A DNA stretch of 64,000 nucleotides from Eledone cirrhosa (Eukaryota): positions 106,888,001 through 106,952,000 of the forward strand of contig OZ024741.1 of assembly GCA_964016885.1 (NCBI GenBank). The letters are read 5' to 3'. The translations under genes and the position numbers were made by a program. This document shows, one piece after another, positions 33,716 through 57,821 of this stretch (the first letter of the stretch is position 1; every line of letters starts with the position of its first letter). The notes beneath the pieces are model-generated. The model worked only from the letters and a program-made list of their open reading frames with translations. It was not told the DNA's origin and made no database searches.

Positions 33716-34192
33716 AAATAGAATAGAATGAAACGAAATTTCATTTCTCACTCTTAGTACGGCACTTACTTAAATGTAAGTATGTATGTATACGTACATA
33801 CATATATGTATACAGACGTACAGTAGTATGTATATATATACATACATGCACACATATATATATGCACGTATCGGTTTACCGAACATTTATTATAATGTTC
33901 GGTTTGTTTGTTTGTAAACAAACAAACAGCCCGAATTACGCCGTACAGTGTTTAGGCAACCACGTCACCTTTTTGTTCAACACTGACACAGGAACGATGT
34001 ACTAGTTTCAAGCTTATTAGCTATCGTGAGCATCGTATACCTTCCTGCCAGATGGTTGAACGTCTGAAAGTATATACTTTCCTTATGCATATTAACGGCT
34101 GAGCAGCCTAATTTGCATATCGAGTGAGTTCAGTCGGCCGGGCACACCGAAAACGATAAATGGAATATAATGAAACGAAATTTCATTTCTCA
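33716..34192 (-). mobile_element. Retrozyme-like 442-nt unit (just over one monomer, terminally redundant)
   Basis: aatgaaacgaaatttcatttctca at 33727 and 34169; HHR 33994-34036 (core mutated to CTCACGA); octamer 34111-34118. Confidence 0.8.
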
Positions 34193-34205
34193 TATATATA
34201 TATAT

Positions 34206-34490
34206 CCAAAATTAAATTAAGGGTGTCATGTCTGAGAGACATTTTAAAAGGTATCGATAATTGAAGTTCTAGTTAAACTTTAATTGGTTACCCACCTATC
34301 TGTGTGTGCTTGCACACTTTACAAATTATTCCCTGTGATTGTTTCATATGTTTATTATATATATATATATATGTCAATCTATTTCTAGTTGATATAAAAT
34401 TCTCGGACCTATTCATTGGAATCTTTGAGCTTATTCTGCAGTGGATATGGCGCATGTTTCTCAGACATGACACCCTTAATTTAATTTTGG
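34206..34490. mobile_element. MITE with about 36-bp TIRs in (TA)n; relatives at 34780-34887, 51875-52387 and 58488-58710
   Basis: ccaaaattaaattaagggtgtcatgtctgagagacat / atgtttctcagacatgacacccttaatttaattttgg. Confidence 0.8.
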
Positions 34491-35089
34491 ATATATATAC
34501 GGCCCTTTAATTGTAGAGCTAACTCAGTTGAATGGACTCGGCTGCTATTTCTAGCTGTCGATAATCCTATTCACGCCAGTGGGATGACTCTGTGCGATGT
34601 GTGTATTTAAAAAAAAAATGCAACACGTGGTACGAGTCATTCACAGATTTTCATTTGCTCTATAAACACAGATAGTTGGATCTTCTCCTTTGGTGATCAT
34701 CCAGAATTTTACTACTTTGATTTACCGATTAATGGTGAAATATATTTTTATTTAAAGAAATATATACAAAGGAGATTAAACCTTTTAAAAGGTATCTATA
34801 TTTGAAGTTCTAGTTAAACTTTAATTGGTTACCTACCTAGATGTGTGTGCTTTCACACTTTACAAATTATTCCCTGTGATTGTTTCATAGTCTGGACGCT
34901 GTTCCTTTCCAGCTTAATATAAAAGAATGTGATATGGTGTTCAAATAAGTATACGAAAGATATTGTATATCATATAATTCAGGCTTATCGAAATAGCTAT
35001 CCAGCATCAAGGAGTGGGTGGAGAACGGCACAAGAAGACTGTTTTGATTGGTTGAAGTTAACAACTGAAATTTCAATTTGCAAACTCAC

Positions 35090-35163
35090 TCGAGATCTAC
35101 TATGTTGAACTTGCCTGGCCACATACAATATGACGTTATTGCCGAGAAATGTCTATAGTCTGC
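35090..35163 (-). CDS. Candidate 74-nt host exon (phase 0 to 2; ADYRHFSAITSYCMWPGKFNIVDL)
   Basis: Acceptor (tg)n-cag, consensus donor gtgagt; only phase 0 is open. Confidence 0.35.
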
Positions 35164-35491
35164 CTGCACACACACACACACACGCACACGCACACGCACA
35201 CACACACACACACACACACACACACACACACACACACACACACACACACACACACACACACACACACACACACACACACACACACACACACACACACACA
35301 CACACACACACACAATATAACATAATAAAATATATATTTGTGTATACAAAAAACACACATACAAACACACAGACATTCATGTATAAAAATATGTCTTTGA
35401 TAGTTTACACAATAATATATAAATATAATATAAAATATAATTGTCACAAGAAATAATAAGTTACTGTTGATGACCAGAGTAAAAATATATA

Positions 35492-35668
35492 TAATTGTTT
35501 CTACTTTTGGCACAAGGCCAGCAAATTAGCCAGTACATTACTGGTACTTTATTTTATCGACCCCATAAGGATGAAAAGCAAAGTTAACCTCGACGGGATT
35601 TGAACTCAGACCGTAAATGGACGTAACTATGTTAGAAAGCATTGTGTCCAGCCCTCTACCGATACTGT
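35492..35668 (-). mobile_element. SINE family 1
   Basis: Full reverse-complement match to the family body. Confidence 0.85.
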
Positions 35669-54221: not shown

Positions 54222-55333
54222 GTAAATATGATAATAATGGAGCTGCGGCGTTGCAAATGGGATACATGTGAAAAAGTGAGTCCTTCATCAGTGACCCTCC
54301 AACCGTCCTGGGCATTTCATCGCTTTAAGGGCCATATGCCTCGGGTTGGTGCGAACAACGGCTAAAAAAAGTCGTTGGGACACGTAAATAAAGGGGGACG
54401 CCAGAGTAACAACAAAAAAGTTTTAGCAACGGAAAGTGAGTAGAAATAGACAAGTCCCAGATCTCTATGAATATAAACTCTGTGAAATCGTGAACAAGAA
54501 ATGCCCAGGACGGTTGGAGGGTCACTGATGAAGGACTCACTTTTTCATATGTATCCCATTTGCAACGCCGCAGCTCCATTATTATCATATTTACACATAT
54601 ATTTTTTCCATGCTGCCATTCGTGTTTCGTTTGTATCTTTACCCTTTCTAGCAGTCTCTCTATCTCTGTTAGCCTCCTCCTCAACTTTCACTCACTCATT
54701 CTCTGTCACTACCTCTCCTCCTCCTCTTTCCTCCTCCTCCTTCAAGTTTGACCTGTGTGTAATTCTTTTCTCGCGCGGTCTTGACCAAGCTGGTATGGAA
54801 TTTTTTTCTCTCTCTCTTTCGTCTGCGACTTCACAAAACTTACGTTTACTGAATTCGTAGAACAGACCCCTTCTTCTTCTTCTTCTTCTTCTTCTTCTTC
54901 TTCTTCTTCTTCTTCTTCTTCTTCTTCTTCTTCTTCTTCTTCTTCTTCTTCTTCTTCTTCTTCTTCTTCTTCTTCTTCTTCTTCTTCTTCTTCTTCTTCT
55001 TCCTCTTCTCTCCTTTTTCTCTCTCTCTTTTTTCCCCCCCGTCAAACTTGGGCGAAATTCTTTCCTTGCTCACATTTCAACCAGGTTTGATGGTCTTTTG
55101 TCTCTTGTTCACGATTTCACAGAGTTTATATTCATAGAGATCTGGGACTTGTCTATTTCTACTCACTTTCCGTTGCTAAAACTTTTTTGTTGTTACTCTG
55201 GCGTCCCCCTTTATTTACGTGTCCCAACGACTTTTTTAGCCGTTGTTCGCACCAACCCGAGGCATATGGCCCTTAAAGCGATGAAATGCCCAGGACGGTT
55301 GGAGGGTCACTGATGAAGGACTCACTTTTTCAT
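54222..55333 (+). mobile_element. Terminally redundant 785-nt unit (54498-55333) with a 5' inverted 277-bp piece
   Basis: gaaatgcccaggacggttggagggtcactgatgaaggactcacttttttca at 54498 and 55283; 54222-54498 is the reverse complement of the unit's junction region. Confidence 0.7.
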
Positions 55334-55427
55334 ATATATATATATATATATATATATATATATATATATATATATATATATATATATATATATATATATG
55401 TATATATATAGTAATAATAATAATTAT

Positions 55428-55584
55428 AATAATTGTTTCTACTTTTGGCACAAGGCCAGCAATTAACCAGTGCATTACTGGTACTTTATTTTGTCGACCC
55501 CGTAAGGATGAAAGGCAAAGTTAACCTCGGCATGCTTCAAAGCATGGCGTCCGACGCTCTACCGATACTGCCAATCCACCGCCT
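55428..55584 (-). mobile_element. SINE family 1 with internal deletion
   Basis: Tail, core and head present; B-box region missing. Confidence 0.8.
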
Positions 55585-55786
55585 TTATAATAATAATAAT
55601 AATAATAATAATAATAATAATAATAAATTTGAAGACTAAAATTTAGTTTCCGAAGATCCCGTTAAGGGTGAAAGCAGCGATTCTTTGCTTAAACTTTAAT
55701 CTGTTATTTTAATAAATATATATATATATATATATATATATATATATATATATATATATATATATATATATATATATATATATATA

Positions 55787-56368
55787 TGTAAGTATGTATG
55801 TATATATATGTACATACATATATGTATACAGACGTACAGTAGTATGTATATATATATACATATATGCACACATATATATATATATGCATGTATCGGTTTA
55901 CCGAACATTTATTATAATGTTCGATTTGTTTGTAAACAAATAAACAGCCCGAATTATGCCGTACAGTGTTTAGGAAATCACGTCACCTTTCTGTTCAACA
56001 CTGCCACAGGAACGATGTACTAGTTTCAAGCTTATTAGCTATCGTCAGCATCGTATACCCTCCTGCCAGGTGGTTGAACGTCTGAAAGTATATACTTTCT
56101 TTATGCATATATGTGTGCATGTATGTATATATATACATACTACTGTACGTCTGTATATATATATGTATGTACGTATACATACATACATACTTACATTTAA
56201 GTAACTGCCGTACTAAGAGTGAGAAATAAAATTTCGTTTCATTCTATTCCATTTATCGTTTTCGGTGCGCCCGGCCGACTAAACTCACAAATTAGGCTGC
56301 TCAGCCGTTAATATGCATAAGGAAAGTATATACTTTCAGACGTTCAACCATCTGGCAGGAAGGTATAT
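55787..56368. mobile_element. 442-nt retrozyme family copy (55787-56108) plus inverted part (56110-56368)
   Basis: Colinear with 33716-34192. Confidence 0.8.
56012..56054 (-). ncRNA. Type I HHR, canonical core
   Basis: acgatg CTGACGA tagct-aata-agctt GAAA ctag TA catcgt. Confidence 0.88.
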
Positions 56369-56879
56369 AATAATAATAATAGAATAATAATAATAATAGG
56401 AAAGGTATATAATATAATAATAATAATAATAATAATAATAATAATAATAATAATAATAATAATAATAATAATAATAACACTATTTATAGTTATGTATATA
56501 CTATAAACAACTATAAACAGGAAAGGTCATACTCCCTTATTACCAGTAAGAGAAATAGCTATTAAATGATTTGAACCCAACTTTGATTATTGTCTAATTT
56601 ATTTATATATATATATATAAGAGACGTAAAATAAGAAAATTATAAAATTAACTTACTTACTAAAATATCACTTCCAACTAATTAGTTTCTGGAATGGAGT
56701 AGATACATCTTCCGAAGAAGGTGTAAAGAATCATCCCGTCATCAGGAAAGTCTATTCTCATATAAGTTTCCAGGCAAAGCGAGGACTCTGGAGGCTTATT
56801 AAAAAAATAAATCAGTGAATAGGAAATAGCAAAGCGTGGACTTAATTCCTAGCCATTTATGTATATATATGTTACTAGA

Positions 56880-57821
56880 AACAAATAACGAAACGAAATT
56901 AAATTTCGTTTCGTTTGTAACTCACTTTTGTATGACTGACGCTTAAACAATTAAGTTAAAAAATGTACATCTACATATGCATACTGAAATACTAGTGTGT
57001 ATATGAATACACACACGTATACATATGTAGGTGTACCAAGTCTTTCACTGGTCGCTTTACAGTGAGCGGCCCAGCTATTCTGTATGTAAACACACAGACA
57101 AACCGGTTTTTAGAGTCATACTGGTTTTTCGGGGGAACACCTTCCCCCTATTCTCCAGAAAGCCAGACAAGGAATATTGAACTAGTTTCGTTGTTGTTAC
57201 AACTCATCAGCAATATTTACCTATCTACCGGCCTTTCTGGAGAATTGTAAAAGCACATATCGTTATATGCTTTTTCTATGAAAATTAGTAGTGGACAGAC
57301 TAATTTGCATAGAGTGTGAGTACGCACCGGTTCAGCGGAGACGATAAAAACAAATAACGAAACGAAATTAAATTTCGTTTCGTTTGTAACTCACTTTTGT
57401 ATGACTGACGCTTAAACAATTAAGTTAAAAAATGTACATCTACATATGCATACTGAAATACTAGTGTGTATATGAATACACACACGTATACGTATGTAGG
57501 TGTACCAAGTCTTTCACTGGTCGCTTTACAGTGAGCGGCCCAGCTATTCTGTATGTAAACACACAGACAAACCGGTGTCTGTATGTAAACACACAGACAA
57601 ACCGCTTTCTGGAGAATAGGGGGAAGGTGTTCCCCCGAAAAACCAGTATGACTCTAAAAACCGGTTTGTCTGTGTGTTTACATACAGAATAGCTGGGCCG
57701 CTCACTGTAAAGCGACCAGTGAAAGACTTGGTACACCTACATATGTATACGTGTGTGTATTCATATACACACTAGTATTTCAGTATGCATATGTAGATGT
57801 ACATTTTTTAACTTAATTGTT
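56880..57821 (-). mobile_element. Retrozyme-like tandem, 469-nt monomer (about 1.5 copies) plus inverted 57604-57821; 11-12 bp TSD
   Basis: caaataacgaaacg at 56882 and 57351; (t)atgttactaga flanks at 56868-56879 and 57822-57833; octamer 57303-57310. Confidence 0.85.
57173..57217 (-). ncRNA. Type I HHR, canonical core
   Basis: aatattg CTGATGA gttgt-aaca-acaac GAAA ctag TT caatatt. Confidence 0.92.

Follow-up and report, generated by a model that had tools for sequence, protein, structure and literature searches.

Octamer-bearing hammerhead repeats of Eledone cirrhosa and their likeness to host snRNA promoters

A 64,000-nt stretch of the Eledone cirrhosa genome (GenBank assembly GCA_964016885.1, contig OZ024741.1, positions 106,888,001 to 106,952,000 of the forward strand; here the window) contains three families of short non-coding repeats, A, B and C, that carry a hammerhead ribozyme and, upstream of it, the octamer TATGCAAAT. 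The question raised by this locus is how such units are transcribed and moved. A, B and C appear to be related non-coding hammerhead retrozymes in which a block of octamer, YCAG word and TATA box likely drives transcription, most likely by RNA polymerase II (Pol II). What was read directly from the DNA is the hammerhead anatomy, the copy number, the double 3' ends in (TA)n, the presence of inverted arms and the match in sequence to host promoters.

Hammerhead and octamer block in the repeat units

The families were identified by self-comparison of the window and direct reading, and unit positions count from the hammerhead cut along the ribozyme strand. Unit lengths of 442 nt (A), 440 nt (B) and 469 nt (C), with terminal redundancy at 33716, 39813 and 56880, were claimed in a first-pass annotation and agree with sequence comparison. 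The family A insertion (33716-34192, minus strand; locus L061) holds 1.08 units and abuts (TA)n with its long 3' end at 33716. Family B (39813-40406, plus strand; L001) holds 1.35 units with a short 3' end at 40406 and (TA)n on both flanks. Family C (56876-57823, minus strand; L031) is composed of 1.49 units at 56876-57576 with a long 3' end, and an inverted arm at 57604-57823 with a short 3' end. The units contain no open reading frame (ORF) of 120 or more residues and none adjoins them in the window. They share the features of non-LTR (long terminal repeat) retrozymes: a type I hammerhead per unit, a tandem arrangement of units a few hundred bases long, and neither LTR nor coding capacity.

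The type I hammerhead proposed for all three families was found in each, with a short and mostly palindromic stem III. The A hammerhead (33994-34036, minus strand) has a palindromic ACUAGU stem III and a cut between 34000 and 33999; its core at 34030 is mutated (CUCACGA). Those of B (40220-40269, plus strand; core at 40228, GUC cut after 40261) and C (57173-57217, minus strand; core at 57210, GUU cut between 57180 and 57179) are intact. An Rfam search reported C alone (HH9 at 57157-57228, E 3.1e-6, under the gathering score) and missed most of these hammerheads; its microRNA matches were rejected as microsatellite artefacts. Stem I forms 41 of 42 pairs over seven families, compared with a mean of 3.6 of 6 for arms swapped between families, and 24 of 28 stem II positions are paired versus a mean of 1.7 of 4 for swapped arms. 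The stems differ in sequence yet stay paired, as the initial reading had it. This structure suggests that the transcripts would self-cleave, and the predicted circular fold is highly paired (z -4 to -18). The unit bodies had been described as diverged, which is correct for B, whose similarity to A is detectable at the octamer module alone; A and C are homologous, with 66% identity over 247 nt.

Upstream regions of the host U1, U2, U5, U6, U6atac, MRP and RNase P genes were used for comparison. The promoters were chosen by eye as likely real genes, near-identical array members and repeat-flanked copies were dropped, and the RNase P start was moved 10 nt by hand. The set for RNA polymerase III (Pol III) comprised three U6 lineages, U6atac and MRP (n = 5). 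All five carry TATG(C/G)(A/T)AAT(T/G)AG at -77 to -79 and a TATA near -30, with leave-one-out scores of 12.8-17.7 for a matrix of this head. Among 15 host U1, U2, U5 and RNase P promoters the head occurs in none; in these, YCAGT stands at -55 to -58, with a TATA-like box 25-28 nt further on (31 in one). A distal TTACCTCCCTTG-type word lies at -257 to -288 in 12 of the 13 host promoters checked. The octamer-type head is directly upstream of the position of the proximal sequence element (PSE) in U6, U6atac and MRP genes (L111, L112, L113, L193 and L199), and the host RNase P RNA gene has the U1/U2-type promoter word in place of the head. The compact octamer at -77 of host U6, U6atac and MRP genes is useful for small-RNA promoter design in this animal.

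Genome searches extended the comparison beyond the window. The pattern TATGCAAAT-N65-95-CTGANGA-N10-24-GAAA gave 35,225 matches, compared with 2 for the reversed-pattern control, and exposed further families F and G and subfamilies A2, A3 and C2. The octamer head of the units, TATGCAAAT(T/G)AG, equals the host Pol III element found at -77 to -79. Scored with the Pol III head matrix, all seven of A, A2, A3, B, C, F and G reach 14.0-20.7 (0 of 500 shuffles), and no value among 19 other hammerhead families exceeds 8.9. F and G were retrieved through the octamer pattern, so the free test there is of the following bases alone; in A, B and C the host head is also matched at the three positions that follow the octamer, though these lie outside the search patterns. 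The word YCA(G/C) stands at +16 in A, A3, B, C, F and G, and a combined YCAG and TATA matrix gave p = 0.005 for A, A2 and A3 and 0.025 for B. The octamer start lies 40-45 nt from the TATA box in A, B, C, F and G, which does not match the 46-48 nt of host Pol III genes, and YCAG to TATA spans 24-29 nt, like host U1, U2 and U5. The octamer is thus like that of Pol III genes, and the YCAG word and TATA distance are like those of U1, U2 and U5, which together make a hybrid layout.

Family A has the octamer head TATGCAAATTAG at 34108-34119 (minus strand), the same as the host U6, U6atac and MRP element at -77 to -79. The candidate PSE core, TCAGC at 34098-34102, is 16 nt past the octamer start (p 0.005 against shuffles), its host counterpart being the U1/U2/U5 YCAGT at -55 to -58, and TATATA follows at 34071-34076, 42 nt past the octamer start. 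The host 56-nt YCAG spacing predicts a start at 34046 (ggc|AGG), 47 nt ahead of the cut. Family B has a triple 33-bp repeat at 40068-40155 (plus strand), each copy with the octamer (or ATGCAGAT) and TCAG at +16. The last octamer is at 40135 and TCAGT at 40151, and a TATA-like CATATATT at 40178 leads to the predicted start region (40178-40209; ggc|AGG, A at 40209). The C block (57238-57311, minus strand) consists of the octamer head at 57311-57300, CCAC at +16, TATAAC at 57267 and a predicted start at 57238 (cc|AGA). By host spacing the predicted C|AG start is from 47 nt (A) to 59 nt (C) ahead of the cut. Counted from its start, the octamer precedes the CUGA core by 88, 93 and 100 nt, which puts it about 74, 77 and 85 nt ahead of stem I, close to the 75, 78 and 86 nt claimed at first.

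Mismatches across the A subfamilies are few in the octamer (5/106), the +16 word (1/75) and the hammerhead (9/516) and frequent in the flanks (59/286 and 100/477), differences that stem from a few subfamily-diagnostic sites. The octamer is therefore better kept than its flanking bases, as expected from the first reading, in a test made across A subfamilies; within B and C the octamer comparison had 1-3 covering copies each. The suggestion of an snRNA-type (small nuclear RNA) internal promoter holds as to the match with host snRNA promoters and fails as to position: the block lies upstream of the predicted start and would travel with the unit through tandem or circular permutation.

A search for the promoter alone, with the hammerhead left out of the pattern, gave 738 matches, some duplicated, and none for the control. 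Eighteen divergent hits, chosen among the first 100 matches listed as unlike A and B, were followed downstream. Seven of the 18 have an exact CUGANGA 86-112 nt downstream, and 3 of 18 pass a strict hammerhead test, which 22 of 3000 control windows also pass. Several of the hits link A, B, F and G to one another. Because promoter-only hits carry downstream hammerheads and several of them bridge these families, the octamer hammerhead families are, as judged from sequence, one old superfamily keeping a putative promoter module.

DNA searches returned at least 2200 (A), 4071 (B) and 846 (C) candidates, of which 40 per family were scored. The best matches to A and C are 98-100% identical; the insertions are dispersed, young and number in the thousands. 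Units range from 420 to 484 nt, with tandem arrays of up to 7 units within loci and longer ones among the genome-wide pattern matches. A query-free sample of 760 kb (76 stretches of 10 kb, 4 of them adjoining the window) contained 51 hammerheads, and the reversed sequence none; the octamer lies upstream in 8 of the 12 that belong to A, B or F and in 0 of the other 39. A metagenome scan for octamer head plus core gave 116 loci, none with a pairing hammerhead after the octamer, and these are chance matches. At L391-L395 an A-type promoter variant repeats each 1713 bp, which fits a higher-order array of about four units. In a U1 tandem array, a C-type hammerhead (L141, about 281, plus strand) precedes a U1 gene on the same strand by about 1.2 kb.

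Insertion ends and Penelope-like mobilisation

Each family has two fixed 3' ends, both joined to (TA)n. The A ends fall at unit positions 284-286 in 19 of 51 segments and 219-229 in 26, and the B ends at 140-150 in 24 of 56 and 172-182 in 15. The C ends fall at 301-305 in 26 of 50 and 231-236 in 15, counts in which some overlapping loci enter twice and six ends are locus edges. Much the same positions emerged from 24 A segments retrieved without an A query (285-286 in 14, 214-229 in 9). The 5' ends of these segments are scattered, with none at the cut site and none at the predicted start, and at least 13 of the 24 cross the cut. Opposed, inverted arms mostly pair one long with one short 3' end.

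The sequence between the two ends, the tail, measures about 35 nt (B), 60 nt (A) and 70 nt (C). In the window copy of A it occupies 33716-33780 (minus strand; unit positions about 222-286), with a GAAAYGAAATTTCRTTTC palindrome at 33730-33747. The motifs aaatttc(g/a)tttc and tttatcg, initially listed as part of a conserved order around the octamer, were rejected as promoter parts, since in A and C they mark the tail or the long 3' end. The first, a palindrome, is within the tail of A, B and C; the second is the long 3' junction in A and C and lies about 25 nt past the long end in B.

Two fixed 3' ends with a tail, 5' truncation, an inverted arm and an AT-rich target are hallmarks of non-autonomous Penelope-like elements (PLEs), and all are present here. 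The double 3' ends link the units to the PLE mechanism. The proposed retrozyme identity and use of PLE machinery are supported by the fixed ends, the tail and the inverted arms, and the sequence evidence supports A, B and C as non-LTR retrozymes with Penelope-type mobilisation. A passage of PMC8557442 describes the pattern of tail and inversion for PLEs, and one of PMC11167929 accounts for the tail by two internal start sites of the reverse transcriptase (RT). The double ends and the cut-crossing copies indicate that the template would be circular or uncleaved multimeric RNA. Linear cut RNA was rejected as the main template, as 5' ends do not pile up at the cut.

As portrayed in parts of PMC8557442, PMC11167929 and PMC4209133, PLEs resemble these insertions in that they form partial tandems with an inverted, 5'-truncated arm, insert into AT-rich or (TA)n targets, have a one-end tail that stems from two internal RT starts, and carry minimal hammerheads with a palindromic stem III. 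They differ in that the units here have no ORF, and in a tail of 30-40 nt, compared with about 35, 60 and 70 nt in B, A and C.

Transcription of the units and its alternatives

Promoter activity, the polymerase and cleavage are what we infer from these sequences. In the proposed cycle a POU factor would bind the octamer and SNAPc the YCAG word, and RNA would start about 72-74 nt past the octamer, 47-59 nt ahead of the cut. Without a 3' box the polymerase would continue into the following unit, and two hammerheads, probably paired through their palindromic stem III, would free a cut-to-cut monomer containing the whole promoter. A scan with a crude 3' box pattern found none in A, A2, A3, B or H (a family described below) and a single weak candidate in C. 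Circularisation of the monomer is likely; a Penelope-like RT/endonuclease would then nick (TA)n and prime at two internal sites flanking the tail. By copying more than one unit the RT would again place the promoter ahead of a hammerhead. Retrotransposition usually leaves an upstream promoter behind, a loss that such a tandem or circular-permutation cycle would overcome.

The preference for Pol II comes from the spacing, from T5-T7 tracts within B, C, A2 and A3 units, from family H and from the newt precedent. Pol III would stop at the T5-T7 tracts before a full monomer is made, and a 5-bp spacer change is reported, in the text seen of PMC7949045, to inactivate U6. Family H (L015:2787-3097, 310-nt unit) is without the octamer. 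Relative to its predicted start, it has the host distal word at -256 (score 19.7, host 10.3-23.9; 0 of 500 shuffles, p < 0.002), CCAGT at -56 and TATAAG at -29. Its distal word overlaps the 3' strand of hammerhead stem I. It is possible, though somewhat less likely than not, that retrozymes captured host snRNA promoter machinery twice, the octamer families combining a U6-type proximal octamer with U1/U2-type PSE and spacing and H having kept the distal element in its hammerhead 3' strand. On this tentative account an old, still expanding superfamily would move its promoter to new sites by circular permutation.

Several observations weigh against transcription of the units by Pol II from the block. 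In this host the octamer head is specific to Pol III genes, the long 3' end falls on T tracts, and the hybrid layout was not found in any host gene examined. The YCAG and TATA matrix is not significant in C (p 0.13), F (0.49) or G (0.27) and reaches p 0.02-0.06 in 4 of 17 unrelated hammerhead families, so this match is moderate evidence. A3 alters the head to TGG, a change at +9. The host distal TTACCTCCCTTG-type element is absent in A, A2, A3, B and C, and in the predicted fold of the RNA an inverted copy downstream base-pairs with the octamer. Octamer-less families account for 39 of the 51 sampled hammerheads, and because the families are homologous the conservation counts few independent events. 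As to mobilisation, uncleaved RNA is the dominant template in the one PLE studied in vitro, as given in part of PMC11167929, so a circle is not required. An autonomous PLE with A, B or C ends was not found in the loci, no genome-wide partner search having been made.

The same elements could instead be read as driven by a Pol III type 3 (U6-like) promoter, with transcripts mostly ending at oligo(T) by the tail and rare read-through giving monomers. The specificity of the octamer head for host Pol III genes and the TATA box suit this account, as do the T tracts that B (173-178), C (298-302), A2, A3 and F have at or beside the long 3' end, and a section of PMC7949045 describes compact octamer-PSE-TATA promoters with dual activity such as human H1. 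However, the octamer-TATA spacing of the units is 2-7 nt below that of all five host Pol III promoters, T5 occurs inside the B promoter and T5-T6 in mid-unit in C, and sister family H has a U1/U2-type element set. An RNA stopping at the tail would also lack the promoter, yet at least 13 of the 24 A segments cross the cut. Pol III transcription of this kind is quite improbable.

It is unlikely that the block is no working promoter at all but was kept for RNA structure, as a site for a protein of the PLE machinery, or by hitchhiking from one ancestral capture, the repeats being transcribed by host read-through. The octamer, the TATA box and the predicted start are all in predicted hairpins, the extended stem I pairs beyond the predicted start, the families share descent and most hammerhead families here are without the octamer, all of which such an account would accommodate. 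The octamer is nevertheless fixed while its pairing partner varies (TAATATGCATA in A, TAATTTTCATA in A2 and C), which fits a constraint on sequence. The three extra bases that match the host head came unasked in A, B and C, and in H another host promoter element stands at the proper spacing. Amplification as DNA, by unequal crossing-over of pseudo-LTR (pLTR) fragments or satellites without an RNA cycle of their own, is highly improbable. This is proposed in part for vertebrate retrozymes in text from 10.64898/2026.07.22.740005, and some long arrays exist here. Against it stand thousands of dispersed young insertions with PLE double ends and 5' inversions, the lack of an ORF beside units in the window, and a hammerhead core among the best-kept parts (9/516 mismatches). 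The end structure largely refutes it.

Transcription from an snRNA-type block, here most likely by Pol II, would have one close precedent. In newt satellite 2 an snRNA-type promoter is said to drive Pol II transcription, according to a passage of PMC2220036 citing Coats, Zhang and Epstein (1994). That element, likened here by description and not by sequence, resembles A, B and C in joining a hammerhead tandem unit to an snRNA-type promoter and differs in coming from another phylum. The units here form many dispersed families with PLE ends, and their octamer is placed as in host Pol III genes and their PSE word and spacing as in Pol II genes. The newt satellite 2 promoter reportedly combines an octamer with a PSE and starts RNA some 47 nt ahead of the cut. 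The human H1 promoter, in the part of PMC7949045 that treats it, similarly has octamer, PSE and TATA within 100 bp, with polymerase choice set by the PSE-TATA spacer. A, B and C differ from it in having no Staf-type distal element and in carrying the block inside a mobile unit.

Metazoan non-LTR retrozymes, as sections of PMC7229834 and 10.64898/2026.07.22.740005 present them, are likewise non-coding, tandem or partial-tandem type I hammerhead units of low GC with a highly paired predicted circle and co-existing PLEs. They differ in unit length (420-484 nt here), in that those sections name no promoter, and in that circular RNA is shown in PMC7229834, the units here being known from DNA. The Discussion of PMC7229834 also gives no promoter. 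Animal retrozymes are reported to be abundant as RNA in every tissue looked at, something uncommon among retroelements. A housekeeping snRNA-type promoter inside the unit would explain this. If the double capture were true, it would, together with newt satellite 2, make capture of snRNA promoters a general reason for all-tissue expression of animal retrozymes. Retrozymes, the PLE link, the tail and an snRNA-type promoter in one retrozyme (newt) are already in print. This superfamily, its host-promoter match and the hybrid layout were not found in open-access PMC and bioRxiv. The words 'octamer', 'octopus' and 'cephalopod' are absent from the main text of PMC7229834, and 'ribozyme' from that of a 2026 octopus repeat annotation (PMC13282606).

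Degenerate copies and neighbouring repeats

Two further A-type insertions in the window, first described as head-to-tail units at 37615 and 55787, each proved to be a 5'-truncated arm plus an inverted arm with no intact octamer. The older copy (37617-38010, minus strand) has an arm at 37617-37948 truncated within the octamer and a short inverted arm from about 37952, and its core at 37864 is mutated, GGAA replacing GAAA. The other (55787-56367, minus strand) has an arm at 55787-56110 with an intact hammerhead (core at 56048) and no octamer, and an inverted arm at 56107-56367. With no intact octamer in either and the core mutated at 33716, only the window copies of B and C have both parts intact.

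Hammerheads without the octamer also occur in the window. A family with a long stem II and a UGCGCA stem III lies at 33367-33702 and 49875-50054 and forms a palindromic insertion immediately beside the A copy. At about 16857-16960 the hammerheads of a further family, with an AUAUAU stem III, form an inverted pair.

PLE-like ORF fragments are frequent in the loci, and none is followed by A, B or C. In the window they lie at 45303-45929 (plus strand), 58886-59749 (plus strand) and 50834-51267 (minus strand) and have what we take to be the Cys-rich linker and GIY-YIG-like motifs typical of PLEs; a Pfam search of two of these fragments gave no significant family. The fragment at 45303-45929 is within a 1.65-kb inverted duplication (43748-45399 and 45619-47266) that contains internal repeats of 235 bp; after the fragment comes a CUGAUGA without the canonical GAAA. 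Hammerhead family K, at about 28400-29450 of the window and in L182, is probably the pLTR of an autonomous PLE, because in L182 it comes after ORF fragments resembling the PLE-like ORFs of the window. A dispersed family of ~175-190 nt, presumably SINE-like (short interspersed element), is found at 6576-6755, 11580-11757, 24965-25477, 32147-32329, 35483-35670, 36083-36266, 55420-55583 and 63495-63817.

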